This document shows, piece after piece, positions 2,470 to 64,000 of a stretch of DNA of 64,000 nucleotides. Made by a program: the position numbers and the translations under genes. Source of the stretch: Anaerostipes sp. (GTDB lineage: Bacteria > Bacillota > Clostridia > Lachnospirales > Lachnospiraceae); assembly GCA_028697725.1 (NCBI GenBank), contig JAQVEG010000001.1:167516-231515 (forward strand), in the 5' to 3' direction. Every line of letters begins with the position of its first letter. Position 1 is the first letter of the stretch. The notes under the pieces are model-generated. The model was not told the DNA's origin, ran no database searches, and was given only the letters and a program-made list of their open reading frames with translations.

Positions 2470-2541
2470 TGAGAAAGTAAAAGGTGTGTAAACCTGTGTT
2501 TTCAGGTTTGCATGCTTTTTTAACTAGAAGGAGACAAAAAC

Positions 2542-3456
2542 ATGGATTTATTAATGAATATGCAAAGTGCGATTGCACAAGGAACCTTATGGGGCATTAT
2601 GGCACTTGGTGTATATATTACATTTAGATTATTGGACATTGCTGATTTATCTTGTGAAGGTAGTTTTGCAATGGGCGGATGTGTAAGCTCAGTTATGATT
2701 ATTATGGGATTTAATCCATTTATAACTTTGATTTTTGCTACACTTGCAGGAATGCTTGCAGGATTTGTTACAGGACTTCTTCATACAAAGTTTATGATTC
2801 CAGCTATTTTATCAGGAATTTTAACGATGATAGCATTGTATTCGGTTAATATTCATATTATGGGACAGCCAAATACATCTCTACTTGGAGAAGATACAGT
2901 ATTTACATTGGTAATGAATCAATTTGGGTTAGATCAGACAGTGGCAACACTCCTTGTTGGTGGAGTTATTTGTGTCGTTGTAATTTTGGTTTTATATTGG
3001 TTTTTTGGAACAGAACTTGGCTGTACTCTTCGTGCAACTGGAAACAATGAATTTATGGTACGCGCCCTTGGTGGAAACACAGATACATCAAAGGTAATTG
3101 GATTATTACTTTCCAATGGATTAATTGCATTGTCAGGTGCTTTGGTAGGACAAAATCAAGGATATGGAGATGTAAAAATGGGAATCGGATCCATTGTAAT
3201 TGGTCTTGCATCCATTGTAATCGGTGAAGTTATTTTTGGAAATCGATTTAACTTTGTTTATGTATTGGTATCAGTTGTAGTTGGTTCTGTTGTATATCGT
3301 ATGATAATCTCTTTGGTTCTGCACTTTGGACTAAATACAGACGATATGAAGCTATTTACGGCAATTGTTGTTGCATTGGCATTGGGGATTCCAGCACTTC
3401 GTTCAAAGTATATGCAAAAGAGAATTCCGGCAAGTGAGGAGGATTCATCATGTTAA
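2542..3456 (+). CDS. ABC transporter permease
   Basis: Polytopic hydrophobic protein with DLSCEGSFAMGG and LRATGNN motifs; GGAG RBS; overlaps the ATPase start. Confidence 0.85.
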   Translation: MDLLMNMQSAIAQGTLWGIMALGVYITFRLLDIADLSCEGSFAMGGCVSSVMIIMGFNPFITLIFATLAGMLAGFVTGLLHTKFMIPAILSGILTMIALYSVNIHIMGQPNTSLLGEDTVFTLVMNQFGLDQTVATLLVGGVICVVVILVLYWFFGTELGCTLRATGNNEFMVRALGGNTDTSKVIGLLLSNGLIALSGALVGQNQGYGDVKMGIGSIVIGLASIVIGEVIFGNRFNFVYVLVSVVVGSVVYRMIISLVLHFGLNTDDMKLFTAIVVALALGIPALRSKYMQKRIPASEEDSSC

Positions 3457-43302: not shown

Positions 43303-45243
43303 ATGGTGGATTACACCAAAGACAAGAAGACAGAAAATGTCATGAAAAACATGGTTCATAGAATAATGGATATGGATTATGAGGTCATTGCAATGATTGA
43401 CATCTCTTTAAATAGAGTTAGATTTTGTAAAAAGGAGCAGGAAGAATTTTTCAAATTACAAGACAAAAGTGAATTATATAATGAAACTGTGATTCAGCCT
43501 TTATCTGAGCTTATTGTGTCTCAAGAGGTTGATTATGCAATCAAGAAACTGAGCATCCCATATATTGTGGATGCTCTTTCCCATTCTAAAACATATGTAT
43601 GCACTTATATGGTAAAGGAAAAAGCTGGGGAAGAAGGATTTCGAAGATGGAAATTCACTTATTTAGATGAGGAAAAAAATCTAGTTCTTTATACGAGAAG
43701 TAATGTTACAGATTTGTATGAAATAGAAAAAAACCAAAGAAAGATACTGCGTAATGCGTTGATTCAGGCGGAAAAGGATAGCAAGACTATTGTAGATTTT
43801 ATATCTCAAATTAGTCACGAAATCAGAAATCCAATGAATGCTATGATTGGAATTGCATCTCAGGGAATGCAGCCAGGAAAGATGAAAAATGAGCTGCGAG
43901 AATGTATTGGACAAATGGAAAAACTTGCAAAATGTATTTCAGAGTCAAGTAATGAAATTCTAGATTATGTTATGCTGAAAAAAGGAAATTCTTTCTTATA
44001 CGAAGAAATCTTTCAATTCCATGAACTTCTGCAAAGGGTAAATGCAAAATGTTATGCAAAGGCAGCGGAGAAGGAGATTGAGTATCTAGTAAGCTATGAC
44101 AGTTTTATAGAGGATTATTATATTGGCGACAGTGAAAAACTAAATCGACTTTTGTGTGAAATTATTTCCAATGGAATTAAATATACTCCAAAAGGTGGGA
44201 AAATAAATCTTTCCATTCATGTAAAGGAACATATAAATGATACCATATCTATGCAGTTTATTATTAATGATACAGGGGTTGGTATCTCAGATTCTTTTTT
44301 ACCATATATTTTTGATCCCTTTCAAAGGGAAAAGAGAAAAAGAGGTGTGGGAGGAATTGGGTTAGGACTAAGTATCTGCAAACAATTAGTTGGAGTTATG
44401 AATGGAACTTTACATATAAATACAATCCAAGATGTAGGAACAAGATTTGTGATTGAGATTCCTCTTCGTGTTATGGACCAAAGTTTAAATCAAAGGAATT
44501 CCAATAAACAGCTTGCACTGATTATCCATAGAGAAACAGCTAAATGTCAGGAGATGAGAAAAACACTAGAAAGTCTGGGAGTTCAAGCAAAATGGGTTAC
44601 ATCAAATACACAGGCATTTCGGTTTATTCATCGCTGTATGAAGCAAGGAGAGATATTTGACTTTGTTTTTTATGATTTTTTGCTGTCTGTGAATCATGAC
44701 TGTTCCACCATCCAAAAGTTGAAAAGCTGTCTTGGAGAAAAGGGAAAGTTAATATTGACTTATAATGAGATAAATGAAGAACTAGAGAAAACTGCCAGAA
44801 ATGAAGAGGTGGATATAGTTTCTGAGCATTCTGTGAATAAAGTTTTTCTGAAAGAGTATGATTTTACAGGGAAGAGAGTCTTGATTGTAGAAGACCACGA
44901 ACTGAATGTAAGAGTAGTAAAGAATCTTTTAGAAAAGAAACATGCACAAATTGATGTTGCAGAAAATGGATTGGCTGCCATTGAAGAATTTCTTTCTCAT
45001 GATGCTGGATATTATGATGCAGTTTTAATGGACATTCAAATGCCTTTAATTGATGGAATTACAGCCACAAAAGCAATTCGCTCCACTAAAAAATCCGACG
45101 CTAAGACAATTCCCATTATTGCAATGAGTGCAAATGTATATGAGAAAGCAAGGAAAGAATCAAAAGCGGCGGGAATGAATGCACACATAGCAAAGCCCAT
45201 AGAACCCGAAGTATTCTATGGGACATTGCATAAATTCTTATGA
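43303..45243 (+). CDS. Cytoplasmic hybrid histidine kinase / response regulator
   Basis: SHEIRNPMN H-box, NGIKYT, DTGVG, GLGLSI; a degenerate internal receiver and an intact C-terminal receiver (LMDIQMP). Confidence 0.85.
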   Translation: MVDYTKDKKTENVMKNMVHRIMDMDYEVIAMIDISLNRVRFCKKEQEEFFKLQDKSELYNETVIQPLSELIVSQEVDYAIKKLSIPYIVDALSHSKTYVCTYMVKEKAGEEGFRRWKFTYLDEEKNLVLYTRSNVTDLYEIEKNQRKILRNALIQAEKDSKTIVDFISQISHEIRNPMNAMIGIASQGMQPGKMKNELRECIGQMEKLAKCISESSNEILDYVMLKKGNSFLYEEIFQFHELLQRVNAKCYAKAAEKEIEYLVSYDSFIEDYYIGDSEKLNRLLCEIISNGIKYTPKGGKINLSIHVKEHINDTISMQFIINDTGVGISDSFLPYIFDPFQREKRKRGVGGIGLGLSICKQLVGVMNGTLHINTIQDVGTRFVIEIPLRVMDQSLNQRNSNKQLALIIHRETAKCQEMRKTLESLGVQAKWVTSNTQAFRFIHRCMKQGEIFDFVFYDFLLSVNHDCSTIQKLKSCLGEKGKLILTYNEINEELEKTARNEEVDIVSEHSVNKVFLKEYDFTGKRVLIVEDHELNVRVVKNLLEKKHAQIDVAENGLAAIEEFLSHDAGYYDAVLMDIQMPLIDGITATKAIRSTKKSDAKTIPIIAMSANVYEKARKESKAAGMNAHIAKPIEPEVFYGTLHKFL

Positions 45244-46347
45244 AAATAAATCTTTTAAAACCTGTTGAGCATTCATATTCTGGTATCCATCTGGATCTGT
45301 CATCATAGTGCTGCTATTTCCAGTATTCCAACGCATTTGTCCAAAATGACTTAAATACTTTTTGCTTCGTTTGTTGGAAGGATACTTTTTATACCAAGAA
45401 GGATAATACTTCTTCATATATTGTTTTGCAAGTTTAATTGCCTGACTGTTATTGCTTCCAGAGCGAGTCTGAGTTCCACTGAGCTGAACGCCAGGAGCAC
45501 TGCTGTGAAGAAGTACAACACTTCCGTCAGAACACTGACCAATCACAATCCATACATGACCACTGCAATCAGAACAGGCGGTACTCATAATGTCACCAGG
45601 TTTATAATTTTTGACCTTGGAAGGTTTTTGATAAGTTCCCCATTTACGACTTGCAAAATTCTTTGCCATTTTTTTAGAGGACATAACATATCCACTTTTA
45701 TTATTTGCAGTATTTCGGATATTGTAAATACTCCAGCCAACAAATCCAGAACAATCAAGACCATTGCCCCACTGATATCTTGTTTTTGAGGTATTATAGT
45801 TTTTCTTTTGTTTTCCAAAAAAAGTTCTCCAGTTTGGATTGACGCCAATGGTTTTTGCGTCCTTTCCAGCAGAAGTGTCTGCCTTGTTCCATCCCCCACC
45901 CCAGATGTACATGGTAGAACCACAAGGAGCAAGTGCTGATTTAAGATAATTCTTTAAAGTAGAATAACCTTTTTTAGAAATTGTGGCAGATACAGATTTA
46001 CTGTAGGAACCATAATAACGTTTTTTGGATACGATACGATATCCACGAACCTTGAATTGATAAGTTTCTCCACGTTTTAAATTCTTAACCGTATATTTGC
46101 AGGATTTTGTATATCCCTTGTAAGTATAAGACTTCTTGCTGGGGTTATATTGATAAACAGCATACCTTGTTGCGTAAGATGCTTTTCTCCAGGTAATATT
46201 TACATTTGTTTTTACAGCAGTTGCAGTTACATAAGAAGGCTTTTTAGGTCTTTTAGTGGCTGCAAATAATATGGTACTTGAAAGGACTAATATCATAGTG
46301 CCAAAGAGCATACAAAATATCCTTTTTTTCTTTCTTATTATATTCAT
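45238..46347 (-). CDS. Secreted FN3-domain protein with an NlpC/P60-like cysteine hydrolase domain
   Basis: Signal peptide, FN3-like segment (W.KAS.ATRY.VYQY...Y.FKVRGY), YIWGGG, GLDCSGF, GHVWIV. Confidence 0.7.
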   Translation of the reverse strand: MNIIRKKKRIFCMLFGTMILVLSSTILFAATKRPKKPSYVTATAVKTNVNITWRKASYATRYAVYQYNPSKKSYTYKGYTKSCKYTVKNLKRGETYQFKVRGYRIVSKKRYYGSYSKSVSATISKKGYSTLKNYLKSALAPCGSTMYIWGGGWNKADTSAGKDAKTIGVNPNWRTFFGKQKKNYNTSKTRYQWGNGLDCSGFVGWSIYNIRNTANNKSGYVMSSKKMAKNFASRKWGTYQKPSKVKNYKPGDIMSTACSDCSGHVWIVIGQCSDGSVVLLHSSAPGVQLSGTQTRSGSNNSQAIKLAKQYMKKYYPSWYKKYPSNKRSKKYLSHFGQMRWNTGNSSTMMTDPDGYQNMNAQQVLKDLFS

Positions 46348-46460
46348 TCCTACCTCATTTCGTGCAGTTTCATCGTTATCCCTTAGAACAAAGTATAACA
46401 TAATTTTATAAGGTGTTGTCAAAAAACACTCTATATGTTAAAATAATTTTCGTAAAAGAA

Positions 46461-50957: not shown

Positions 50958-51000
50958 TAGGAGGTTGACAGATGAAAAATTCATTTGTCAACCTCCTTTT
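50958..51000 (+). terminator. Rho-independent terminator
   Basis: AGGAGGTTGACAGATG ... CATTTGTCAACCTCCT plus a T-run. Confidence 0.85.
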
Positions 51001-51080
51001 ATATTATTTCAATTTCTACAAGAAAGTGTTATAATTATAAGCAATAGAGGGAGAATTCGGTAGTCGTGGGGGGCGATAGA

Positions 51081-54000
51081 ATGAATAAATGCAGGGTTTT
51101 AAAAAAGAGATTAGGGAATCAGGGATTTACTCTTGTAGAAACCATGGTTGTACTACTAATATTAGGAATTTTGATGTCAGTGACCGCAGGGGGGTTAGTG
51201 GCTTATTTGCGTCATGCCAATTTTAAGAAGAACAATGAGTATGCACAGACCATTTATACGGCAGCTCAAAGCTCCTTTACCTATGCAAAGACCAGCGGGC
51301 AATTAGAGGAATTAGCAGATGAGCTTAATACAGATGTGGAACCCACCAGATACAATACTAAGAATAAGCTTACAAAAGATATGATTACCAATGGTGCCAA
51401 TTTAGACGATCGTGATCGTATGTATACTATGACATTTAAGAAGGGATTCAAAAGTTCTTCTGATTATTTTGGTGCCTACAAAACAGTTTACGATATGGTA
51501 GCGGTCTATGTGTATGATCAAGAGATTTTAGACAATACATTTACTGTGGAATTTGATCCAGTGGATGGAAAGATTTTAGGGGTTTGCTATGATGATAAGG
51601 CAGATGACTTTAATTACGAATCAACCAATAGTAATCGTAATTACAGTATTAAGAATCGAGACAGAAGTGCAAGATATGAATATTTAATTGGATATTATGG
51701 AATTGATACTTTGTCTGCGCGGGCACCAGAGACTGGTGGAAGACCTGTAATTAACAATCAGGCATTGGTGAATTCAGATACTCTTTATTTAAGATGGAGA
51801 TTAAGTTCTCAATATGCAAATGTAACGGAGAGTCTTACCTATCAGATTAAACTATATAAAAAGTCACCAGTAGAGGGACAAAAGGATATTTTATTTGCTT
51901 CTTTTGCAGTGAATGGAGATAACAATAAAATCAAAGCTGAGAGCAACACAGACAATCCGGATGAATTGTTTGTGAAGGCAGATGTAACTCTTTATGATGA
52001 CAATGGGAATGTAACGGATACAAAGAAGAATATGCAGTTTAAAGCATATGAGTCAAGTAATCGAATGCTTTATGTGGTGTTAGATGGAGCAGATCAGGCT
52101 TCAGACTCACAGGTTGGGCTACAGACAGGGGATTATGATAATACTTACAGTATTAAACGATTGGGAATTAAGGATGCTTCTAATATTTACGCAACCGTAC
52201 AAGGAACTGGAACATCTTTTAAGGCAACAGCAAGAAAGCAGACCAAGACCGAGAATAGTTACTTTGCAAGTGGAAGTACAGATACATCAGGGAATTTAAC
52301 ATATAAGATTGCTAATGCAAGACACTTGTTTAATATGCGGTTTTCTGAAAATGAAATTCCAGAGACAAACAATGTAAACTATGTTCAATCCAGCGATTTT
52401 GCCTGGGATGGGGAAGATAGTTTAGTTTCTAGTGGCAATTTATTTTATGGGCAAAAGACTGCAACTGATTCTGGGGAAAGTGGAAAGCAAGTTTTTCCAA
52501 TGATTCCTGAATTAAAGAAGAATCATTCTTATAAAAGTGAGACAGATAAGCAGTATAAGATATCTGGATTGAATCTTAGAAGCAAGGATAATACAGCTTT
52601 GAATGCAACTGGATTGTTTGGAAAGAACAGCGGAACCATTGCAAGTGTAACCATTGCCAGTGCAGATGTTCAAGGAACCAATTATGTTGGAGCCTTATGT
52701 GGTATTAACGGTGGAAGTTTATCTCATGTTACGGTAGATCATAATTCAACCATAGAAGGAACAGGAGAATATGTTGGAGGAATTGTTGGAAGTGATCAGT
52801 CAGGATATGTACTATCAGATGGGTCGGTTCAAGTGGGAACTTCAAGGACTTATGAATATTTGAAAAATGAAGGAGATGTAAAAGGTGGAAGTTATGTGGG
52901 CGGTATTATTGGCTACATCCATGGATACTATCAGCCAGATGAGAATACAAAAGCAGGGATAGAGATTCTATCCATTAAAAATTGTGACAATACAGGGTTC
53001 GTGCGAAGCACAAAAGAAGATGGACAGTGTATTGGAGGAATTGTTGGATATAATAAACAAACTCATATTTTAGAGTGCAGCAGTGCACCAGAACTTCCAA
53101 GTACCGTTGTGGAGCGTGAATATGCACAATACTTAAAGGGTGTCTGTAAAGGTGATTATGTTGGAGGAATCGTAGGATTCAATGAAAATGCCGACATTTC
53201 AAAATGTCATACGGAAAGTGATAATACAGATACTTATGTAGCAGGTAGAGATTTCGTTGGAGGAATTGTAGGATTTCAGACTGGTGAATTAAATGAAAAT
53301 GGAACTATGGATACAGAACTTACATTAAGTGGGGACACAGATGGATCCAATGGAGTGAATCAGGCCAATGTAGTGGGAAGAAGTTATGTTGGTGGAATTG
53401 CTGGCTTCAATGGAAAAGTTACAGGAAGTGTTACAACCAATTTAGATGGAACAAAAACAATTCAAATTCAGAAGGATACCATTGGGAAAAATAAGAATGC
53501 AAAGATTACCAACTGGAACAATCGAGGCGTGATTATGGCGACAAACCGAGGTGATGATAACGAGATTGCTGAGTATGCTGGTGGTATTACAGGATATAAC
53601 GGTGGAATTATTGAGAATTGTACAACCAATGTAGATACCAATGCAGTGTCTGGAAAAACAAGGAGAACATTTGCCAGTGAAGTTGGTGGAACAGGAAATT
53701 ATGTAGGTGGTATGGCAGGCTACAATGCTGGAAGTATTATAGCAAGTGGTAATATGAATGTAAATAGTGTAGCAGCTGGCCAGCGTTATGTAGGTGGCGT
53801 TGTAGGGTATGAAGCTGAGGGAAGTTCTATTTCAGAACATATGCAGCTAAAAGGCGGTTATGTATATGGTAAATACTTTGCAGGCGGATTGATTGGACTA
53901 AATCGAAGTCAGGAAGTTTACGATAAACAGTATGTGACAAAACCAACAGATATTCAGGGAGAATTATTTGTAGGTGGAATTTTCGGTGGGAATATTTTAT

Positions 54001-57000
54001 CAAAAGGCGGAGATTTAAAATTAGAAACAAGCAATTCTCTTGGTAAAGTCAAAGGAAGAGCTTTTGTTGGCGGATATATTGGGTATAACAAAGCGGTAGA
54101 AGCTGGGTATAAAGAGTCTGAGGATTTAAATACTTTGTGTACGGACTTGTCCAAAACAAATAAAGAAATTGAAACAGTAGTTCAAAAGGCAGATTCGTCA
54201 GATCAACAGATGAATCTTGGTTCTAAAAGCGGAGACACTCTCTCTTGTTACTTAGATAGAGTAGAAGGAGATATTTATGTTGGAGGCGTTGCAGGATATA
54301 ATGGAGAGAATACAAAGCTATATATTTACAATATAGAGAATAAAACAAAGGTAACTGCCAAAGCACATATAAGTGGAGATTATGATAAGGAGTATTCTTA
54401 TGGTGGTGGTATCATTGGTTTGGTGTCTAAGAATATGTATATTTATCACTGTAAAAATGAATCTTCTGGAAAGGTAACAACAAAAGGAACCTATCATGGA
54501 GGTCTTGCAGAAGAGAATTTAGGAATAATTTCAACTTGTGATGCAAATACCTTTGGCTCTTCAACAACAGATTATGTTGGTGGAATTGCGGGTGTCAATG
54601 CAAAGAGTGGAAGGATTCAAGAATGTAAAACCATAGGAACAATTACTGGAAACAATCGTGTTGGAGGAATTGTATCTGAAAACTATGGAAGAGTGGAAGA
54701 ATCAAAGATTGAGAACAATGTAAATGGTTCTGGAGATGGCATCGGAGGAGTTGCAGGTGCCAATGAAAAAGGCGGAATCATAGTAAATTCAAAGATTAAC
54801 AATTCTATTATTGCAAAAGGAAATAATGTTGGAGGAGTTGTAGGAATTAACGAGAAAGGAACTCTTAACAATACAAATGTTGTGAAAGAGGGAATTACAA
54901 TTCAAGGACATAATGGAGTTGGGGGTTATATTGGAGAGAATATAGAGGCCGATTTAACAGGCTTAAGAAATAATGCCACAGTAGATGCAGATGCAAATGC
55001 AGGGGGGATTGCAGGTAAGCTATCTGGAAGCTGTACAATTACAAATTGTGAAAATACATCTTCAGGGAAAGTAACAGCGAATAAAACAATTACCATGGAT
55101 GGAAAGAAAAAAGGATATGCAGGAGGTATTACATCCAGCACAGAAAAAGGAGTTGAAATTAAGAACTGTACCAACAAAGGAACTGTTTTAAGTGCTGCAG
55201 GAGAAGCAGGAGGAATGACTGGAAACAATGGTCATGGTGCAGTGATAATATCCCCAACAGTAGATGATGGCAAGATTACTGGAAAGGCAGCTGTGGGAGG
55301 AGTTGCAGCCACCAATGAAGGAAATATTACAAATGCAGTGATTAAAGAGGGGGTTACCCTTTCAAAAGTAAGTACAGCAAACGATGTTTCCATGGGAGGT
55401 GTCGTTGGAGAAAATGGGTCGTTAGGAACCATTACCAATGCATCAGTAGGAACAAGCAGCTTAGAATTTAACTTAAAAGCAACTAGTGATGGTGGAGACT
55501 ATGGAAGTGTTGCAGGAAAGAATGAGGGAATGTTATCAGGCGGAACTTCAGAAGACAATTCTAAGATTATCTACGGGGTGGTTTCTTCTGGAAGTAATGT
55601 AAATAAGACTTCTGCGAATATGGGCGGAATTGTTGGAGATAACAGTGGAACTATAAAGTATTATAAATTTAGTGGAAGTGTCATGGGAAAAGGAAACAGT
55701 AACTACGGATATGGAGGAATTGCAGGAATCAATAGAAATATCATAACCCACTGTGGGCTTGTTGGAAACACGTCTTTGGTGGAAGCTGTGGGAGATGCTA
55801 TGGATATTGCCAGTATTGGAGGTATCGCAGGCAGAAATGAAAAAGGGGCAATTTTATCCCATTCTTATGTAAATGGTGGAAATTCCTCTGGGAATGCGAT
55901 TGTGATTCAATCAACGTCTGTTGGTTATGTTGGTGGATATTGCGGATACAATCTTGGGACTGTAACAAAGAACAATACATCATCTGTAGATGGTTACGTA
56001 ACGATTCAAACATCAAAAGGTCACCTTGGAGGTATGATTGGTAACAATGATAAGACTGGGGTTGTCACGCAATCTACCACTGGAGGAGGAAGTGAAGAGA
56101 CACAAAGCAATCATCACTGGAAAGTAATTGCAAAAGCACATGCAACAGATAATGGTACGGGTGGTGCTATCGGTTATAATGCCTCTGGAAAGGACATAAA
56201 GGAACTTGTCAACTACGCAGATGTAACCAAGTCAACTGCGTCAGGAACCAATGCATGTGGTGGAATCGTTGGTCGTTTGGAGAATCAAAGCAATTCAGCA
56301 TGGAGAATGTCCAATTGTAAGAATTACGGAACAATCACTGGACGTGAAAGTACAGGAGGAATGATTGGACGTTGGAAGTACAAAGGCGGAACCATTGAAA
56401 AGTGTGAAAACTATGGAAGTGTGACTGGCTCAGGTATGGATATTGGTGGTATTATAGGAGACTTATATCAAGTGACAGATAAAGAATCATTTACTGTTAC
56501 AGGATGTAAAAACTATGCAAATCTCATAAATCCAGGAGTGAAGAATGTAGGAGGAATTATAGGAGGATCAGGCTCAGCTACGATTTCCAATGTGAATCTC
56601 AATATTTATAATTGTATTAATACTGGAAAGATTACAGGAAGTTCTTCGGTAGCAGGAATTGTGGGATACTTTAGTATATACAAGTTGAATGTAAAAATTA
56701 CAAAATGCAGAAATTATGGTTTGTATGAGGCAACGTCAAATGGTGGTGGAATCTATGGTTCTGGAAGTGGAACGACCATTGAAAATTGTTTTGGCGTATC
56801 CACAGTAGAACATCCAATTACATCGTCCAAAGTTACCATGAAGAACAGTTATTGTTTTGATCAGGCAAAGGAAGGAGAGGAAGATTCTATTTCTAATATT
56901 GCATGGCCATCTGGTTCAAACAATGGAAATGTTACTTCAGAGGGAGAGTCTATCTTAGGTTCCCTTGTGGATGATAACTGGAGTACAAGATATACAAGAT

Positions 57001-59942
57001 TAAATGTGGAAAAGGATGGCACCAAGGGAAAAGGTGATATTGTAATCACATTTAATAACAATATGAAACTAAATAGCTTTACTACATATTGGTTCTCAAA
57101 TGATGCATCAAAGAGAAGAATCTATACGTATAATATTTATTATTGGAATAATGTGACAAAGAGCTGGGTGAAAGCAAATCCAGATAGCAGTCAACCAATT
57201 ACTGCTACAGGAAGTAAGAAAACGGATACGGAAGCAACAAAGAAAAGCTATGGAAGTACTGTTGAATTTGGTGGAGTGGAAACTGGAAAGATTAAAATTG
57301 AAGTATTAGGAAATTCCACAGGGAATAATGCAATGTCATTATGGGAAATGAAAGTAAATGAAAAAAGTCCAGTTCTTGGAATAAATACCACAGCAGCTAA
57401 TACTGCAATACCTTTGCATGTTTCTAAGAATTCAGATAAAAGCACATATCGAGCGATTAATATAGCTTATGATGCGGATATAACTGATTTGCCTAAGAGT
57501 CCACTGGATATTACCGATACAATGTCAGATGATAATCGAAAGAGTTATTATGAACTTATTGATCCAAAACTAATATTGTTTTACAACAATCAATATGGAA
57601 TTGGAAAGCTAGAGACACCAACAGGCTTAGCCTTGACCAGTAAAGATGGAAATTATATTGCGTCTTGGGATTCAAATGAAAAAGTGTTCTACTATAAATT
57701 AGTTGTGGAAGTATATGAAACACAGGGAGATACAGTGCCTGTTGATTCAAAGGAAATAGATGTAACTAGTGGAAGTTCAGCCTCTATTCCAATGGAAGAT
57801 GACTGGGGTGGTAAATATATTACATTTTCTGTGCAGGCAATGAATGGAGATGACACAGATAATGGTCAGCCAGATTCCAATGACTCTGAGGTTGCAAGAT
57901 TGCTAACGGGTCAGCAGATAAAACCATTTCTTCCAACACCAGATGTACATTACGAATTATATAAAAAGGCAGATGGAAATCCAGGATATCGAATTGTACT
58001 TAAAAACAGCAGTGAGTACAGTGGTTCAAAAGAAGATGCAGTCATTCATGTTTATCAGGATGATAAGGAAGTGGCATCGTTCTCTGCCAAAGAAGGATCA
58101 ACAGATAATATTGTTTTTGAAGGAAACAATTATAATGTCCAATATACTGCATACGCAGAAGCTGGGGGAACATTGACAGATATATATAACGATTCAAGCA
58201 GATATGGACGAGAAAGCGTGGTATTAACATTTGATAAGTTTACGCAAAAGATTATAAATGCTTCTTTCAATGGATTTACTGGATTGACACCAGATACATT
58301 AAGTTATGTAGCCTTATTATCATCAGCATCCAATGAAATTTATTATCGAACGGAGTTTATGGTAACTGACGAAAAGTTAAATATTCCAGTTGTAGTATCA
58401 AGTTCAAAGGTGCGTGTATCCAAATCATCATCTACAAGTCCAGTAACTTTGGATAAGCTGCCAAAGGATATTGCAGATAAGGATTTTTCGGTTCGTAGTT
58501 ATCCAATCTCCAGCCAAAATGATGTAGCAGAGTATACATTATTAGTAAAAGAAGGGCTGGATATAGAAGATCCTAAAGATAAAGCCATATTAGAGTCCTA
58601 TATTGATGGAAGTACAGCAAAAGCAGGATATTCCATTGAAAAAGTCAATGGAAAGTACGATGTTTATTACAGCTTACTATTAGACCAATATGATACTTAT
58701 AGCGGTTGTATCTATTGGAAACAAAAGGATGAGTTGAAGGCACCAAAAAGTAGTCAAACAGCACCAGTATTGCCAGATACAATTAGTCAAAGTGAAGATT
58801 TTTATACTTTTGAGTGGGATAAGGATCAACTAGGTGGGAAATACAAAGTTGTCATTACAGGAACTACACTAAAGGGAGAAGAAGTTGAATTGTGGTCTTC
58901 TGCTGAAACATCAGAACATGAGTATCGAGTGGATGGCAGTGAATGGATGTATAAAAATATTCATTTGAAAGTCACACGCTTAGGGGAGCAGAACACATCG
59001 GGTATCCTAACAAAATATGGGACAACAACAACAAAAGATTATCCACAGAAGATTCATTTACCAAAGATGGAAAGTCCAACCATAGAGTTAGTTGATTCAA
59101 ATGAGTTAAACTATAAAGTGGGATGGAATATTATCAGCAATACATATAAGGATTATTTTGATTATTATGCAATTGTAGTTACAGATACCAATCATCCTGA
59201 AAAATCATTTACAGTAAAGGAAAATGATATTACAAAGAGTGAGAGTATGATAGATCTTGATTCTGTGGCAGGGGACAAGGTGACAATTACAGTAAGAGCA
59301 GTTGCAAAAGAAAACTCCAATGTATATCAATCAGGAAAATTATCTGATGAGCATAGCTTGCAAGTGCCATTGCGTATTGATACGCCAATCGTAGATGAAT
59401 TTTTGACATTGACACCACAGTATGATGCGATTGTGAGTCAAGACGACTTTGAAAATAAAGGAGTGAGTCTACATATGACAGCCCAGAAGGCTGGGGAAGG
59501 AGGATATGTATTAAAGGCAGGAATCTTTGAAGATGTCAATGCAGATTTGGAGAAAGATAAGCCAGATGCTCAGATTAACAAAGGAGAACAGTTGAGTATG
59601 TCTGGGAATTTGAAGGATTCTAAGACAAGTTTTAAAGATATTTCCTATGATTTTGCAGGATATTATTTGAAAGTGAAATTGCGTAGTGTAAATGAAGGAG
59701 AGATTAGTTCCCTTTGGTCAGCGGTGGAAACTTTTAGACTGCCAAAAGTAAGAATTAATACGCCGAAGATATCACAGGAAACAAAGGATATTGAAACTGA
59801 GATTACCACGACTTTTTCTGAAAGCAGTGGCTCAGAGAAGAAAACTATTTCTTTTGATTCGATTTTGTTTCAGGTACCATCAAATGATGAAGGTAAATTA
59901 AAAGATTACATCATTGAAACAAAGGCGGCACAAAAGGATTAG
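51081..59942 (+). CDS. Giant type IV pilin-like adhesin (class III signal peptide, >30 GLUG-like repeats, discoidin-like and FN3-like domains); frame continues past an amber codon to 60467
   Basis: NQG|FTLVETMVVLLILGILM; repeated (Y/N)VGG(I/V)(A/V/I)G.N.G units; ITFNNNMKLNSF...IKIEV...SLWEMKV module; KLETPTGL...ASWD FN3-like segments. Confidence 0.85.
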   Translation: MNKCRVLKKRLGNQGFTLVETMVVLLILGILMSVTAGGLVAYLRHANFKKNNEYAQTIYTAAQSSFTYAKTSGQLEELADELNTDVEPTRYNTKNKLTKDMITNGANLDDRDRMYTMTFKKGFKSSSDYFGAYKTVYDMVAVYVYDQEILDNTFTVEFDPVDGKILGVCYDDKADDFNYESTNSNRNYSIKNRDRSARYEYLIGYYGIDTLSARAPETGGRPVINNQALVNSDTLYLRWRLSSQYANVTESLTYQIKLYKKSPVEGQKDILFASFAVNGDNNKIKAESNTDNPDELFVKADVTLYDDNGNVTDTKKNMQFKAYESSNRMLYVVLDGADQASDSQVGLQTGDYDNTYSIKRLGIKDASNIYATVQGTGTSFKATARKQTKTENSYFASGSTDTSGNLTYKIANARHLFNMRFSENEIPETNNVNYVQSSDFAWDGEDSLVSSGNLFYGQKTATDSGESGKQVFPMIPELKKNHSYKSETDKQYKISGLNLRSKDNTALNATGLFGKNSGTIASVTIASADVQGTNYVGALCGINGGSLSHVTVDHNSTIEGTGEYVGGIVGSDQSGYVLSDGSVQVGTSRTYEYLKNEGDVKGGSYVGGIIGYIHGYYQPDENTKAGIEILSIKNCDNTGFVRSTKEDGQCIGGIVGYNKQTHILECSSAPELPSTVVEREYAQYLKGVCKGDYVGGIVGFNENADISKCHTESDNTDTYVAGRDFVGGIVGFQTGELNENGTMDTELTLSGDTDGSNGVNQANVVGRSYVGGIAGFNGKVTGSVTTNLDGTKTIQIQKDTIGKNKNAKITNWNNRGVIMATNRGDDNEIAEYAGGITGYNGGIIENCTTNVDTNAVSGKTRRTFASEVGGTGNYVGGMAGYNAGSIIASGNMNVNSVAAGQRYVGGVVGYEAEGSSISEHMQLKGGYVYGKYFAGGLIGLNRSQEVYDKQYVTKPTDIQGELFVGGIFGGNILSKGGDLKLETSNSLGKVKGRAFVGGYIGYNKAVEAGYKESEDLNTLCTDLSKTNKEIETVVQKADSSDQQMNLGSKSGDTLSCYLDRVEGDIYVGGVAGYNGENTKLYIYNIENKTKVTAKAHISGDYDKEYSYGGGIIGLVSKNMYIYHCKNESSGKVTTKGTYHGGLAEENLGIISTCDANTFGSSTTDYVGGIAGVNAKSGRIQECKTIGTITGNNRVGGIVSENYGRVEESKIENNVNGSGDGIGGVAGANEKGGIIVNSKINNSIIAKGNNVGGVVGINEKGTLNNTNVVKEGITIQGHNGVGGYIGENIEADLTGLRNNATVDADANAGGIAGKLSGSCTITNCENTSSGKVTANKTITMDGKKKGYAGGITSSTEKGVEIKNCTNKGTVLSAAGEAGGMTGNNGHGAVIISPTVDDGKITGKAAVGGVAATNEGNITNAVIKEGVTLSKVSTANDVSMGGVVGENGSLGTITNASVGTSSLEFNLKATSDGGDYGSVAGKNEGMLSGGTSEDNSKIIYGVVSSGSNVNKTSANMGGIVGDNSGTIKYYKFSGSVMGKGNSNYGYGGIAGINRNIITHCGLVGNTSLVEAVGDAMDIASIGGIAGRNEKGAILSHSYVNGGNSSGNAIVIQSTSVGYVGGYCGYNLGTVTKNNTSSVDGYVTIQTSKGHLGGMIGNNDKTGVVTQSTTGGGSEETQSNHHWKVIAKAHATDNGTGGAIGYNASGKDIKELVNYADVTKSTASGTNACGGIVGRLENQSNSAWRMSNCKNYGTITGRESTGGMIGRWKYKGGTIEKCENYGSVTGSGMDIGGIIGDLYQVTDKESFTVTGCKNYANLINPGVKNVGGIIGGSGSATISNVNLNIYNCINTGKITGSSSVAGIVGYFSIYKLNVKITKCRNYGLYEATSNGGGIYGSGSGTTIENCFGVSTVEHPITSSKVTMKNSYCFDQAKEGEEDSISNIAWPSGSNNGNVTSEGESILGSLVDDNWSTRYTRLNVEKDGTKGKGDIVITFNNNMKLNSFTTYWFSNDASKRRIYTYNIYYWNNVTKSWVKANPDSSQPITATGSKKTDTEATKKSYGSTVEFGGVETGKIKIEVLGNSTGNNAMSLWEMKVNEKSPVLGINTTAANTAIPLHVSKNSDKSTYRAINIAYDADITDLPKSPLDITDTMSDDNRKSYYELIDPKLILFYNNQYGIGKLETPTGLALTSKDGNYIASWDSNEKVFYYKLVVEVYETQGDTVPVDSKEIDVTSGSSASIPMEDDWGGKYITFSVQAMNGDDTDNGQPDSNDSEVARLLTGQQIKPFLPTPDVHYELYKKADGNPGYRIVLKNSSEYSGSKEDAVIHVYQDDKEVASFSAKEGSTDNIVFEGNNYNVQYTAYAEAGGTLTDIYNDSSRYGRESVVLTFDKFTQKIINASFNGFTGLTPDTLSYVALLSSASNEIYYRTEFMVTDEKLNIPVVVSSSKVRVSKSSSTSPVTLDKLPKDIADKDFSVRSYPISSQNDVAEYTLLVKEGLDIEDPKDKAILESYIDGSTAKAGYSIEKVNGKYDVYYSLLLDQYDTYSGCIYWKQKDELKAPKSSQTAPVLPDTISQSEDFYTFEWDKDQLGGKYKVVITGTTLKGEEVELWSSAETSEHEYRVDGSEWMYKNIHLKVTRLGEQNTSGILTKYGTTTTKDYPQKIHLPKMESPTIELVDSNELNYKVGWNIISNTYKDYFDYYAIVVTDTNHPEKSFTVKENDITKSESMIDLDSVAGDKVTITVRAVAKENSNVYQSGKLSDEHSLQVPLRIDTPIVDEFLTLTPQYDAIVSQDDFENKGVSLHMTAQKAGEGGYVLKAGIFEDVNADLEKDKPDAQINKGEQLSMSGNLKDSKTSFKDISYDFAGYYLKVKLRSVNEGEISSLWSAVETFRLPKVRINTPKISQETKDIETEITTTFSESSGSEKKTISFDSILFQVPSNDEGKLKDYIIETKAAQKD

Positions 59943-60467
59943 GACGACAAAGATACCTACAAGACAATAGCAAGTGTTGACAATAAAGTGACACCAGAAA
60001 AGAATGTAAGTCCGTTTACCATAATGGAAAACAACAAGGAAATCAAACAGGAAAATACCTTGTATGAAACTACAACTTCTAAGGATCAGACCACTGTTAC
60101 ACACAGTTATATGTATAAACTAGGATATGTCAGAGATTTAGAGTGGACAAATGAGGCAAAGACGGTTTCTTATAAAGGTACCTTCCATGCATATTTACAG
60201 GCAGTTGCAACTGTTGTGACCCAAAATGGAACATCTGCAACAACATATAGTTATGAGTTGATTCTTCCAGATATCACAGACAGTGATTCATTAAAATTTA
60301 TTGATGGTGTTGCACATCGTTATACGGATTCAGTGCAGGTAAAAGGAGAGGCAGCAGATGCCAACCGTTATGGAGATACTTATACAAGGCAGTGGAGAAG
60401 AACTGTAGAAGAAGACAAAGATGCAGGTATTATTTATGGAACTGAGATAAGTGAAATAAAGGAATAA
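59943..60467 (+). pseudogene. C-terminal segment of the giant pilin-like gene, cut off by the in-frame TAG at 59940-59942
   Basis: Same frame as 51081; open from 59943 (DDKDTYKTIASVDNKVTPEK...) to TAA 60467; no RBS before the GTG at 59988. Confidence 0.7.
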
Positions 60468-60489: not shown

Positions 60490-61065
60490 ATGAAAAGGAC
60501 AATGAAGAAAAATGAAAATAAAGGGGCAGCAATTATTATTGTATTGTGTGTGCTTTGTATCTTTATGGCATTGTCCTTATCTATGATTTTTATGTCATTT
60601 CAGGTGTTAAATAATGCTCAGAAATCTTCTACTAAGGAGCAAAGTAAAATATCAGCAGTCACATTTAATGACACATTGAAGCAAGAGATTATTAGTGAGA
60701 AAGGTATTTTAGGATATGATACTGGAAAGGCCCCTGAAAATGTACGCCAATATATTTATCAGCAGATTAGTGAAAATAAATGGCCTTACTACAATACGGC
60801 TGAGCCAGGACATGGAAAGTATGATGACACTATGCGTGATTTAACAATCTCCATTCCAGAAACGAAAACACCAAATATGGGAACCGTAAAAGCAAAAATG
60901 TACTGGGAAAGTTCTGAAGATGAAAGTGATATGTCCAATGTGATTTTAGTGACGTCAGTAACTGCCACATTTCGGAAGCAAAGTTATACTGTAAAAACCC
61001 AGTATGAATTGCAGAAAGATTCGGCAGATAATTGGAAGTGGACAGTGACTTGGGATGCAGATTAG
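60490..61065 (+). CDS. Minor pilin-like protein (PilX/GspK-type N-terminus)
   Basis: NKG|AAIIIVLCVLCIFMALSLSM: basic leader, Gly, hydrophobic helix, no Glu5. Confidence 0.7.
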   Translation: MKRTMKKNENKGAAIIIVLCVLCIFMALSLSMIFMSFQVLNNAQKSSTKEQSKISAVTFNDTLKQEIISEKGILGYDTGKAPENVRQYIYQQISENKWPYYNTAEPGHGKYDDTMRDLTISIPETKTPNMGTVKAKMYWESSEDESDMSNVILVTSVTATFRKQSYTVKTQYELQKDSADNWKWTVTWDAD

Positions 61066-61075
61066 GAGGTGTGCC

Positions 61076-61414
61076 ATGAAAAATCAAAAAGGTATGACAA
61101 TGGTTGAAGTAATGGTTGCATTTGTGATTTTACTTTTAGGAATTGCCTTCTTATATCGCTCTACTTTGTTTTCTTTAAATCAGGCAAAGATGGCACAGGA
61201 AATACAAAAGCATTCAGATGATTCCTATGCAGATTATTATAATAAAGCAGGAAGTTCATCAACAGAGAAAACAACAGAGATTTCAATTTCAGCAAAAGAC
61301 GGGAACACGAATATTACATGGCAGATGCCCATAAAGTTTGGAACTGCAGTGAGCAGTGAATCAAAGGGAGGAATTTATATTTATTTCTTCCAGTTGCCAG
61401 GAGGTGAATCATGA
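61076..61414 (+). CDS. Minor type IV pilin (PilV-like)
   Basis: MKNQKG|MTMVEVMVAFVILLLG; GGAGG RBS before ATG 61076. Confidence 0.8.
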   Translation: MKNQKGMTMVEVMVAFVILLLGIAFLYRSTLFSLNQAKMAQEIQKHSDDSYADYYNKAGSSSTEKTTEISISAKDGNTNITWQMPIKFGTAVSSESKGGIYIYFFQLPGGES

Positions 61415-62040
61415 AAAGAATTTTAAAATTCATGAAGTTAAATCAAGGAATGACCTTAGTGGAGTTGATTGTAACCTTTGCAATTCTGGGGATTCTTATG
61501 ACAGCAACCATTGCAACTCTGTCTCCTGCTATGAATGTATTTCAAAAAGTAAGTGCTATGAGCCGAGGACAAAGTGTGGCAAGTATTCTTCTTGACAAAA
61601 TTGGAAGTGAAGTAGAGACGGCAACTGGAAATGTATCCATTGGAAATACTGCCAATGGAACAGTCCTTGGGGAAAATACATCAGGCTCTTATATCTCTTA
61701 TCTTGATAAAGATGGGCAGGAGGTTGTTATGTATGCAGGACCAAACACATCATCTTCCGCAGAAAAAAACACAGAGACAACTTTGCAGATTCACTACAAC
61801 AAAACATTGAACCTAAAAGAAGGAATTGACTGGTATTTTTCTAAGGAAACTTATATGAATGAAAAGATTACAAGTCTAACATTCCAGCGAATTAAAAATA
61901 CTACACGCATTCGTATTTATCTAGCATTGGAAAATACTAGGACAGGAACAACTTACGAAAGAACCAAAGTGGTAGATTGTTTTAAACTAGATGATTCAAG
62001 TTTTTTAAAAGAAGGAAAACTCCCTGGATTAACCTATTAG
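61411..62040 (+). CDS. Minor type IV pilin (PilW-like)
   Basis: NQG|MTLVELIVTFAILGILM; ATGA overlap with the upstream pilin. Confidence 0.82.
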   Translation: MKRILKFMKLNQGMTLVELIVTFAILGILMTATIATLSPAMNVFQKVSAMSRGQSVASILLDKIGSEVETATGNVSIGNTANGTVLGENTSGSYISYLDKDGQEVVMYAGPNTSSSAEKNTETTLQIHYNKTLNLKEGIDWYFSKETYMNEKITSLTFQRIKNTTRIRIYLALENTRTGTTYERTKVVDCFKLDDSSFLKEGKLPGLTY

Positions 62041-62111: not shown

Positions 62112-62140
62112 TTGATTTTTAGAAAGCAAGGAGTTATAAT
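62112..62140 (+). promoter_or_regulatory. Sigma-A promoter of the major pilin gene
   Basis: TTGATT-17 bp-TATAAT. Confidence 0.7.
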
Positions 62141-62190: not shown

Positions 62191-62595
62191 ATGTTAACTA
62201 AATTACAAGAGTTACGAAAAAGCAAGAAAAAAGGGTTTACATTAGTTGAATTAATCGTAGTATTGGTTATTTTAGCTATCTTGATTGCATTGTTAGTGCC
62301 AGCGTTAACTGGTTACATTGACAAAGCAAAAGAAAAATCAGTTGCTGCAGATGCGAGAATGATGCTAGAAGCAGTGCAAACAGAGGAATCAGATGCATAT
62401 GCTAAGTCGTCTAAAGGTGGTTATGCAGTAAAAACAGATGCAACACCAACAGCTGCTATGAATACACTAGCTGAACAAGAAACATCAACATATACTTCTT
62501 GTAAATACAATACAAATGATAAAGGCAAGGTTACAGAGATGACCTATGTTAAAGATGGACATACGGCAAAGTGGACTGGTACAGCGTGGGAATAA
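62191..62595 (+). CDS. Probable major type IV pilin
   Basis: KKG|FTLVELIVVLVILAILIALLVPALTGYI; 134 aa; own promoter and terminator (about 62610-62643). Confidence 0.88.
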   Translation: MLTKLQELRKSKKKGFTLVELIVVLVILAILIALLVPALTGYIDKAKEKSVAADARMMLEAVQTEESDAYAKSSKGGYAVKTDATPTAAMNTLAEQETSTYTSCKYNTNDKGKVTEMTYVKDGHTAKWTGTAWE

Positions 62596-62821
62596 GTTAA
62601 TGAATAGTGATAGGAGCAAACTTTTGTTTGCTCTTATTTTTTGTCTATGGATAGGGTTCATTGATATTGTACTTTTTTTGTTTTTTCAAGTATTTTACAA
62701 TGATAACATGGACTTTTTTGTCAATCTCCGTTATAGTAGATTCAATGGCGTGAATTTAGGGGCATCAATGTACGAAGAATGCGTACGTATTACTTTAATT
62801 AATACAGTGGAGGAACATGAA

Positions 62822-64000
62822 ATGCTAAGAATGACAAAAGAAGAACTAAAAAAGGAAATTGTAAATCAAGTGAAGTATCGTTTTCGTAAGAATATTAAAG
62901 ATGCTTCAAAACAGGAAATCTATCAAGGAATCTGTTATGCATTAAAAGAGACAATCGTTGATGATTGGATGGAAACACAGAATAGATATATAGAGGAACA
63001 TGCAAAGACAGTCTATTATCTTTCAATGGAATTCTTAATGGGAAGAGCTTTAGGCAATAACTTAATTAATTTAGCTGCATATGAAGAAGTTGCAGAGCTA
63101 ATTGAAGAATTTGGTGTTGGTGATATTTATGAGATTGAAGATCAAGAGCCAGATGCAGCACTTGGAAATGGTGGACTAGGACGTCTTGCAGCGTGCTTTA
63201 TGGACTCTTTGGCAACACTTGGATATCCAGCATATGGATGTGGAATTAGATACCGTTATGGTATGTTCCAGCAAAAGATTGAGGATGGTTACCAAAAGGA
63301 GATGCCAGATAACTGGTTAGTACATGGAAATCCATTTGAGATTGAACGTCCAGAATATGCAGTGGAGATTAAGTTTGGTGGAAGAATTGACACAACTTAT
63401 GATGATGAAGGAAGAATGAATTTCTCACATCATGATTATGAAAGTATTCTTGCAGTGCCATATGATATGCCAGTGACTGGATATAAGAATGGAATTGTAA
63501 ATTCACTTCGTATTTGGGATGCAAGACCAATCAAGAGTTTTGATCTTGATTCTTTTGATCGTGGAAATTATGCACAGGCAAGAGAATGGAAAAACAATGC
63601 AAGAAGTATTGTAGAAGTATTATATCCTAATGACAATCACTACACAGGAAAAGTGCTTCGTTTAAAACAACAATATTTCTTCGTATCTGCAAGTATTCAA
63701 ACTGCAGTGAATAAATATATGTATTTACAGCCACATGATCACATCTTTGGACTTGCTGACAAAGTATGTTTCCAATTAAACGATACACATCCAACGGTTG
63801 CAGTTGGAGAATTAATGAGAATATTACTAGATGAGTATCAATTAGAATGGGATCAGGCATGGGCAATCACAACAAAGTGTTGTGCTTATACAAACCATAC
63901 AATTATGGCAGAAGCATTGGAAAAATGGCCAATTGAGATGTTCTCTTCATTACTTCCAAGAGTTTACCAGATTATCGAAGAGATTCATCGTAGATTCTCA
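62822..64000 (+). CDS. glgP: Glycogen/starch phosphorylase, 3'-partial (absent from the ORF track)
   Basis: GGAGG RBS, then ATG CTA AGA ATG ACA...; YYLSMEFLMGRALGNN, LGNGGLGRLAACFMDSLAT, LYPND, LRLKQQYF, QLNDTHP, AYTNHT; frame runs off the window end. Confidence 0.95.
   Translation, partial: MLRMTKEELKKEIVNQVKYRFRKNIKDASKQEIYQGICYALKETIVDDWMETQNRYIEEHAKTVYYLSMEFLMGRALGNNLINLAAYEEVAELIEEFGVGDIYEIEDQEPDAALGNGGLGRLAACFMDSLATLGYPAYGCGIRYRYGMFQQKIEDGYQKEMPDNWLVHGNPFEIERPEYAVEIKFGGRIDTTYDDEGRMNFSHHDYESILAVPYDMPVTGYKNGIVNSLRIWDARPIKSFDLDSFDRGNYAQAREWKNNARSIVEVLYPNDNHYTGKVLRLKQQYFFVSASIQTAVNKYMYLQPHDHIFGLADKVCFQLNDTHPTVAVGELMRILLDEYQLEWDQAWAITTKCCAYTNHTIMAEALEKWPIEMFSSLLPRVYQIIEEIHRRFS

Follow-up and report, generated by a model that had tools for sequence, protein, structure and literature searches.

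What becomes of a type IV pilin when some three thousand residues are added to it? The question is raised by a gene on the + strand of a 64,000-nucleotide stretch of DNA (hereafter, the window) from Anaerostipes sp., a member of the family Lachnospiraceae (assembly GCA_028697725.1, contig JAQVEG010000001.1, positions 167,516 to 231,515). The usual picture of a type IV pilus is a thin fibre made of ~15-kDa subunits, together with a few minor pilins of up to ~50-60 kDa; the product of this gene is about twenty times the size of a normal pilin and about seven times larger than the pilin PilB of Streptococcus sanguinis. An original prediction, made from the letters of the window alone, saw in it a giant adhesin built on a pilin N-terminus. 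Our results make it very probable that the protein is a type IV pilin. The best reading we can offer of its role, which we hold to be probable rather than secure, makes it an extreme case of a modular minor type IV pilin, one that presents an adhesive stalk at the tip of the pilus or close to it.

The identity of the protein as a pilin is carried by its N-terminus. The gene opens with an ATG at 51081, with a G-rich ribosome-binding site 7-8 nt upstream (an alternative GTG start is found at 51066), and its first residues read MNKCRVLKKRLGNQG before and FTLVETMVVLLILGILMSV after the predicted cleavage site: a basic leader of 15 residues ending in Gly-1, followed by FTLVE with Glu5. This class III signal peptide, as the original prediction had termed it, scores above the cut-offs of both Pfam N_methyl PF07963 (26.9 bits against 21.2) and NCBIfam TIGR02532 (25.2 against 16.3). 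The motif G[FY]T.[VMT]E occurs inside the first 40 residues of all 132 relatives fetched, and alignments extending down to ~25% identity show no variation at G15, T17 and E20 (that is, Gly-1, Thr2 and Glu5), nor at E157, G163, Y170, R198 and G204 further along the pilin module. When a profile of residues 1-215, built from 12 family members, was compared with the PDB, only type IV pilins and pseudopilins were returned (Geobacter PilA, S. sanguinis PilE1, MshA, PpdD, Neisseria PilE and GspG; best expect value, E, 1.8e-9), always over alpha1. The invariant pilin residues and these exclusively pilin-type matches bear out the earlier description of a protein of the type IV pilin kind to which a very large body, not itself pilin, is attached.

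An AlphaFold2 (AF2) model of residues 1-530, computed from 26 sequences with a mean predicted local distance difference test score (pLDDT) of 85, places an N-terminal helix, 55-65 residues long, at residues 18-84 and, after it, a small beta-sheet of 4-5 strands at residues 115-207. Beyond the N-terminus, the head has no significant similarity to GspH, FimU or PilH, the GspH profile matching over residues 14-34 only, at 18.7 bits against a cut-off of 80. From its 5' limit to its last codon the gene is laid out as follows.

50959..50997, + strand: intrinsic terminator of the upstream MatE gene (18-pair stem, then a T-run), the 5' limit of the pilin transcription unit
51081..51125, + strand: predicted prepilin leader peptide
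51126..51710, + strand: pilin module (residues 16-210), a hydrophobic alpha1 with Glu5 and a small beta-sheet head
51750..52100, + strand: Ig-like beta-sandwich (residues ~224-340)
52182..52502, + strand: conserved alpha/beta region before the repeats (residues ~368-474)
52503..56855, + strand: GLUG-type repeat region (residues ~475-1925), at least 34 units
56883..57380, + strand: possible discoidin/F5-8 type C-like module (residues 1935-2100), a lineage-specific insert
57612..59744, + strand: about six FN3/Ig-like beta-sandwiches (residues ~2178-2888), with LP.P-type linkers
59940..59942, + strand: amber codon, Gln2954 to stop
59943..60467, + strand: cut-off 3' gene end of 174 codons, including a family-conserved C-terminal beta-rich domain, then TAA

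Between the pilin module and the repeats, AF2 gives an immunoglobulin (Ig)-like sandwich whose strands exceed a pLDDT of 90, and then an alpha/beta region that contains invariant alignment columns. Within the latter, the motif R414-H-L-x-N-x-R420 (52320-52340) lies on a helix just 5' of the repeat rod and is kept in 26 of 26 aligned members. The region is probably the cap or entry of the rod, and the motif itself may be the solenoid cap.

The repeats come next. The original prediction had counted more than 30 VGG(I/V)xG.N repeats with many Cys in C.N motifs, and both statements stand: 34 GLUG-type repeats were located at residues ~535-1890, their regular-expression cores (GG[IV]xG) falling at residues 566-1858 and mostly 27-45 aa apart, and the repeat region, 18% of which is Gly, holds 24 of the 28 Cys of the protein, often as C.N, in a Cys/Asn ladder pattern. 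A Pfam scan of the full-length protein missed the Glug family; on a 600-aa piece (52581-54380), Glug PF07581 matched in 3 stretches at 39.5 bits against a cut-off of 20.5. The AF2 model includes only the first strands of the repeat region (~475-530), and a phmmer search of the GLUG region against the PDB gave nothing at E <= 1. From the number, spacing and composition of the units we infer a beta-solenoid rod, with one unit per rung and a length of ~15-20 nm. No LPxTG motif and no C-terminal transmembrane or second hydrophobic segment was found in the 3,128-aa form of the protein, on which grounds a sortase-anchored pilin or adhesin was rejected.

Downstream of the rod, the original prediction had placed a discoidin module and several fibronectin type III (FN3)-like domains. 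What remains of the former is a transitive similarity: residues 1929-2100 align with the corresponding segment of a relative, P0023 (pairwise BLASTP, E 6e-6), and the P0023 segment matches PF00754 at 3e-8. The protein itself gave no Pfam F5/8-C match, even at E <= 10 for the discoidin-like segment; AF2 models the segment with a pLDDT of 23-54, a jackhmmer search with it inside the family recovered the near-identical cluster only, and it is missing from most relatives. The FN3-like domains were recovered as folds, AF2 predicting about six beta-sandwiches (pLDDT 70-90) and Foldseek matching the C-terminal array to FN3/Ig arrays with a probability of 1.0 (E 1e-14 to 1e-8), including those of gp130, the leptin receptor, fibronectin and thick-filament proteins. 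At the level of sequence, there was no Pfam fn3 match in the protein, and phmmer of the C-terminal 1,228 aa against the PDB gave nothing at E <= 1. An alignment of the C-terminal part, built from the cut tails of relatives, indicates that the FN3-like array is conserved across the giant-pilin family. The distal end consists of a poorly modelled stretch and then a terminal domain rich in beta-strands (~2990-3128), whose LILPD motif does not vary in the family. The 174-codon end of the gene that includes this domain can be aligned with relatives at 9-29% identity, 53-91 of every 100 query residues being covered, and P1135, D1136 and T1154 of the 1929-3128 piece are invariant.

The frame running from 51081 to 60467, which the original prediction had treated as continuous, is interrupted by an in-frame TAG (59940-59942) that closes the open reading frame (ORF) after 2,953 codons, giving a product of 2,953 aa in this genome; beyond it, the same frame runs for 174 further codons (59943-60467) to a TAA at 60465-60467. 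The length of ~3,100 aa first proposed had read through this stop and fails here, but is correct for close relatives, which have CAG at the position and encode 3,128 aa. A public protein collection contains five near-identical sequences, namely this genome's own product and four of 3,128 aa with Gln2954, one of the latter being a protein from an Anaerostipes sp. metagenome-assembled genome that is annotated 'type II secretion system protein'. In DNA, a 301-base query around the stop matched a genome of the same genus at 96% identity, and that genome carries CAG where this one has TAG, a single C>T change. Intact alleles are 96-99% identical to that of this strain. Because there is one change at that codon, and only 4 positions distinguish the 174 codons 3' of it from those of the intact allele, the TAG appears to mark a nonsense allele of recent origin in a 3,128-aa gene, or else an error in base calling; by the sequences compared, the intact allele is the common form. 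Since the amber codon precedes the terminal domain, the product of this strain stops past the last FN3-like domain and is without the conserved distal domain.

It is possible, and a good deal more than a formal caveat, that the amber codon abolishes function in this strain and that the gene is here a decaying or inactive allele, a state compatible with a tip-adhesin role for the family as a whole. TAG is an ordinary stop in this genome, terminating 382 of 1,300 long ORFs (29%), and no suppressor tRNA with a CUA anticodon is present among the 51 tRNAs found in the assembly, which is 92% complete; moreover, the lost 174 residues include a domain conserved in the family, and interrupted copies occur in other genera too. 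Set against this are the sequence changes just described, which indicate a recent event or a sequencing error, the 94% of the protein that is still encoded (pilin module, rod and all FN3-like domains), and the position of the truncation, which falls between domains in a stretch that AF2 models as unstructured.

The genomic neighbourhood provides the second line of evidence. Four pilin-type genes directly follow the giant-pilin gene; in their N-terminal motifs, a slash marks the predicted cleavage point, and relatives refers to the corresponding loci of other family members.

60490..61065, + strand: 191-aa pilin-like protein without Glu5 (NKG/AAIIIVL), a candidate capping (K/X/ComGG-like) minor pilin; weak ComGG_2 match (E 0.016), positional counterpart in relatives
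61055..61414, + strand: 119-aa minor pilin (KG/MTMVE), I/ComGE-like; N_methyl match at 1.7e-8, NCBIfam match, 115-122-aa counterpart in relatives
61411..62040, + strand: 209-aa minor pilin (QG/MTLVE), J-like; N_methyl match at 9.4e-7, 265-268-aa counterpart in relatives
62191..62595, + strand: 134-aa pilin (KG/FTLVE), candidate major pilin; N_methyl match at 1.4e-9, best matches of GspG/ComGC type

The 134-aa pilin is set apart by a 150-nt upstream gap containing a promoter-like TTGATT-17-TATAAT (62112-62140) and is followed by a terminator (62609-62638). I-like, J-like and Glu5-less members in a conserved order were found both at this locus and in relatives. In two distant relatives (25% and 29% identity over the N-terminal 530 aa) a giant pilin, a Glu5-less pilin, a ~115-122-aa pilin and a ~265-aa pilin occur in the same order, and these two cassettes adjoin PilD, PilC, PilB and PilT.

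Here, a glycogen phosphorylase gene comes next after the 134-aa pilin and is the sole separator of the pilin cassette from the machinery for pilus assembly. A companion note to the original prediction had stated that no assembly machinery lay nearby, which is accurate within the window only, as type IVa pilus (T4aP) machinery begins ~1.9 kb past its end. The genes, at G000:C54:233421-241527 (L010:3922-12028), lie 1.9-10 kb beyond the 3' end of the window, 5-12 kb downstream on the same strand, and encode PilD (A24_N plus A24), PilC (T2SSF), PilM (494 aa), a PilO-like protein, an 89-aa ORF, PilB, PilT and a 299-aa pilin. Together they make up a complete clostridial-type T4aP set.

Four further features of the genome were recorded. 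The listed phosphorylase ORF (glgP, 62546-64000) starts at 62546, its phosphorylase profile begins at residue 193 and the terminator at 62609-62638 falls inside its 5' part; the true glgP start probably lies several hundred bases downstream of 62546. Directly upstream of PilD (L010:3369-3905) is a gene for a protein of the 150-180-aa, single-transmembrane type without a family match, which has equivalents in the two distant relatives (L011:9227-9703, - strand, and L012:19146-19604) and may be an unrecognised conserved component of type IV pili. A second, smaller set, encoding a 410-aa T2SSE-type ATPase and a 219-aa A24 peptidase without the N-terminal domain, is found at G000:C60:~5.3-7.7 kb (L002, L009) and may be a system of the Tad/Flp or Com type. 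Finally, a protein of the cell-wall hydrolase type (394 aa), which matches FN3, NlpC/P60 and CHAP weakly, is encoded ~5 kb upstream of the cassette at 45238-46422 on the - strand, between a hybrid histidine kinase and a thiamine (thiS/F/G/H) operon.

The giant pilin is not a peculiarity of this strain. A word-indexed search with the N-terminal 530 aa yielded 2,134 clusters (90% identity) among proteins of 1.7-5.5 thousand aa, and an exhaustive HMMER search of 50%-identity representatives yielded 986 at E <=1e-3, 447 at <=1e-10 and 114 at <=1e-30. Among the best 150 of these were 142 new representatives with a median of 3,115 aa, 78 of them having at least 3,000 aa, and a maximum of 4,895 aa. 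In whole genomes, a homologue (E <=1e-10) was present in 28 of 300 genera of the source organism's family, mostly as open frames of 2,000-4,456 aa; 401 genomes sampled from the phylum at large contributed no more than two further proteins, of ~370 aa, which share the pilin module alone. The family is concentrated in the Lachnospiraceae. Within the source genus, 5 of 20 species have a homologue, and three of these carry a ~1,215-aa version made of the N-terminal module and about 16 GLUG repeats with no FN3 tail (40-43% identical in the N-terminal 530 aa; G004:C1:1999350-2000870, G010:C1:2023206-2024714 and G011:C33:53794-55317). Such versions, with the module and repeats but without the tail, show that the body is built modularly. 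In the literature on GLUG with pilins or adhesins, on giant or large pilins and on Lachnospiraceae type IV pilins, of which our coverage was partial and thus weak evidence of absence, we found no description of this family and no pilin of 2,000 aa or more.

How might such a protein work? In the published model, a Glu5-less subunit caps a tip complex made up of minor pilins (PMC10191384), and the modular pilins PilB and PilC of S. sanguinis present grafted adhesive modules at the tip (PMC8179133). The giant pilin is itself modular in the sense of Raynaud et al. (2021), as it joins a pilin module to domains foreign to type IV pili (GLUG above its cut-off and an FN3/Ig-like array). In the scheme that we favour, PilD, encoded ~5 kb downstream, would remove the 15-residue basic leader after Gly-1, and the mature FTLVE N-terminus with its Glu5, together with the ~200-residue head, would enter the filament like any pilin. 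The giant pilin would there join the three small pilins encoded behind it, the Glu5-less cap, the I-like and the J-like subunit, in a priming complex from which the PilB/PilC/PilM/PilO-like machine would grow the pilus, to be retracted by PilT. Keeping Glu5, it would be the fourth, H-like member, its body projecting from the tip region. The cassette suits the scheme: the 191-aa protein would be the cap, and the 119- and 209-aa proteins would take the I-like and J-like places. The giant pilin is put in the H slot by elimination and from gene order. At or just under the tip, the stalk would begin with the Ig-like domain and the GLUG rod of at least 34 repeats and continue, in this lineage possibly through a discoidin-like lectin module, into about six FN3-like domains, the C-terminal beta domain forming its outer end. 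Its likely role would be long-reach adhesion, to glycans, fibres or other cells within the gut, pulled on by pilus retraction.

Several observations weigh against this scheme. The check that had been suggested, domain-wise AlphaFold modelling followed by Foldseek, was made for the two ends of the protein (residues 1-530 and the C-terminal part) and gave a divided answer: it supported the FN3-like array, whereas for the N-terminal model it found weak matches to Ig V-type domains (template modelling score ~0.13 by query) and no pilin among the best. Because Foldseek returned no pilin, the pilin fold of the head rests on the order of its secondary structure and the sequence similarity of alpha1. 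A 34-position profile of 19 repeat units returned nothing from the PDB at E <= 10, so that no solved beta-helix is tied to the repeats, and the discoidin-like module is weakly supported. The gene is truncated in this strain, where it may be impaired or inactive, and 3 of the 28 homologues in other genera carry a stop inside the N-terminal region. These interrupted homologues lie at G265:C47:72204-72833, G056:C66:13741-15204 and G295:C21:7909-8484; it may be common for giant-pilin genes to be inactivated or misassembled. Nor is it explained how a folded module of ~3,000 residues would get through the Gram-positive wall at the tip of a pilus. As a tentative answer to this last point, and one that we regard as doubtful, a monoderm type IV pilus machine may thread a pre-folded rod adhesin of ~50 nm, fused to its pilin, through the wall and wield it at the retractile tip. 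The accompanying suggestions, that the geometry of the solenoid and FN3 rod enables passage and that the distal domain is the contact or docking end, are jointly just as doubtful.

A role for the protein as a pilin-anchored adhesin that spans the wall is unlikely, yet it deserves to be set out. On this account, the protein is cleaved by PilD and remains anchored in the membrane by alpha1, or rides a very short pseudopilus that does no more than push it outward, its ~50-nm stalk crossing the wall and reaching beyond it, and the type IV machinery is a device for display or ejection that makes no long fibre. The body is indeed far larger than that of any pilin known to assemble, the largest multi-domain example in PMC8179133 having 860 aa, and a solenoid rod with six FN3-like domains, at the length we infer, would be long enough for a Gram-positive wall; the giant proteins of Omnitrophota, too, occur beside loci resembling type II secretion systems that contain class III signal peptide genes (bioRxiv 10.1101/2023.11.21.568195). 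However, an invariant Glu5 and a full assembly-type alpha1 are needless for a simple anchor, the gene is always grouped with a minor-pilin set of the I/J/cap type, and the PilT retraction ATPase and the separately promoted small pilin point to a true retractile pilus.

Two other explanations are very improbable. One would make the protein a pilus-borne enzyme resembling the M26/IgA1 proteases. This derives from PMC8179133, where the architecture IPR012902-IPR011493 is listed with 6 proteins and IPR011493 is taken for the module of an M26 peptidase; yet in the IgA1 protease of S. pneumoniae the beta-helix (781-1070) is a non-catalytic N-terminal domain, the catalytic residues being at 1604-1628 (PMC7695701), and in the giant pilin neither HExxH nor HxxEH occurs anywhere in the 3,128 residues and no peptidase family was matched in Pfam and NCBIfam scans. 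The peptidase reading was rejected for want of a zinc motif; the GLUG motifs, moreover, presumably map to the non-catalytic beta-helix. The other, decoding of the TAG by pyrrolysine or programmed read-through to give the full 3,128 aa, could appeal to the 174 codons of open frame beyond the TAG, which run almost to the ribosome-binding site of the next gene, and to the incompleteness of the assembly, from which a tRNA may be missing, but was rejected because no CUA tRNA was found, TAG is a common stop here and the relatives carry CAG (Gln), as a point mutation predicts.

The reading of the protein as a tip-displayed modular pilin has consequences beyond this locus. A widespread family of pilins of ~330 kDa (up to ~500 kDa), tied to a tip cassette and a retractile machine, stretches the modular-pilin idea by almost an order of magnitude. 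If the more doubtful threading of a pre-folded rod is true as well, the giant pilins, ranging from 1.2 to 4.9 thousand aa in hundreds of lineages of one gut-associated family, would mean that monoderms put the type IV pilus machine to a use of its own kind. The family raises the questions of how such a protein is extracted from the membrane and passes a thick wall, whether it primes assembly, and what the gut Lachnospiraceae, major producers of butyrate, grip with it. With a natural truncation allele beside intact ones, the role of the distal domain can readily be approached by comparison. Two existing readings are also corrected, the annotation 'type II secretion system protein' and the interpretation of the N-methyl plus GLUG architecture as a peptidase.

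Among known systems, the modular pilins of S. sanguinis, PilB with a vWA module and PilC with a lectin module (PMC8179133, PMC9934059), come from a monoderm host and likewise fuse a class III pilin module to non-pilin modules; their genes also lie among other minor pilins in a T4aP locus, and a tip location has been proposed for them. The giant pilin, by contrast, has many domains and not one grafted module, and bears no sequence similarity to them beyond alpha1. The pair of signatures that it carries, N-methyl and GLUG, was already catalogued as IPR012902-IPR011493 in Dataset S1 of PMC8179133 (6 proteins), where it was counted and read as a peptidase, the size, family extent, synteny and FN3-like tail not being described there. 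With the GLUG-motif proteins (PF07581), which include the M26 IgA1 proteases and their N-terminal beta-helix (PMC7695701), it shares a motif above the Pfam cut-off, and its repeat length of ~29-33 aa fits one rung of a beta-helix; it differs from these proteases in having neither a peptidase domain nor HExxH, and in a far longer run of at least 34 units. The Omnitrophota giants (bioRxiv 10.1101/2023.11.21.568195) are similar in that they, too, are surface or adhesion proteins of great length, genetically linked both to machinery for type 4 filaments and to class III signal peptide genes, but belong to another phylum, are far larger and have no reported pilin N-terminus.

The tip complexes of the PilHIJK, GspHIJK and ComGD-GG types (PMC10191384) resemble the cassette in being four-gene sets with a Glu5-less, a small I-like and a J-like member. 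Their largest member is the Glu5-less K subunit, whereas here the largest is the Glu5-bearing giant pilin. A final parallel is with PilY1/PilC of diderm T4aP, large modular adhesins at the tip that are carried by a minor-pilin complex. PilY1 is not a pilin and docks through a C-terminal beta-propeller; in the giant pilin, in which no beta-propeller was detected, the carrier would instead be a pilin module covalently fused to the adhesin itself.

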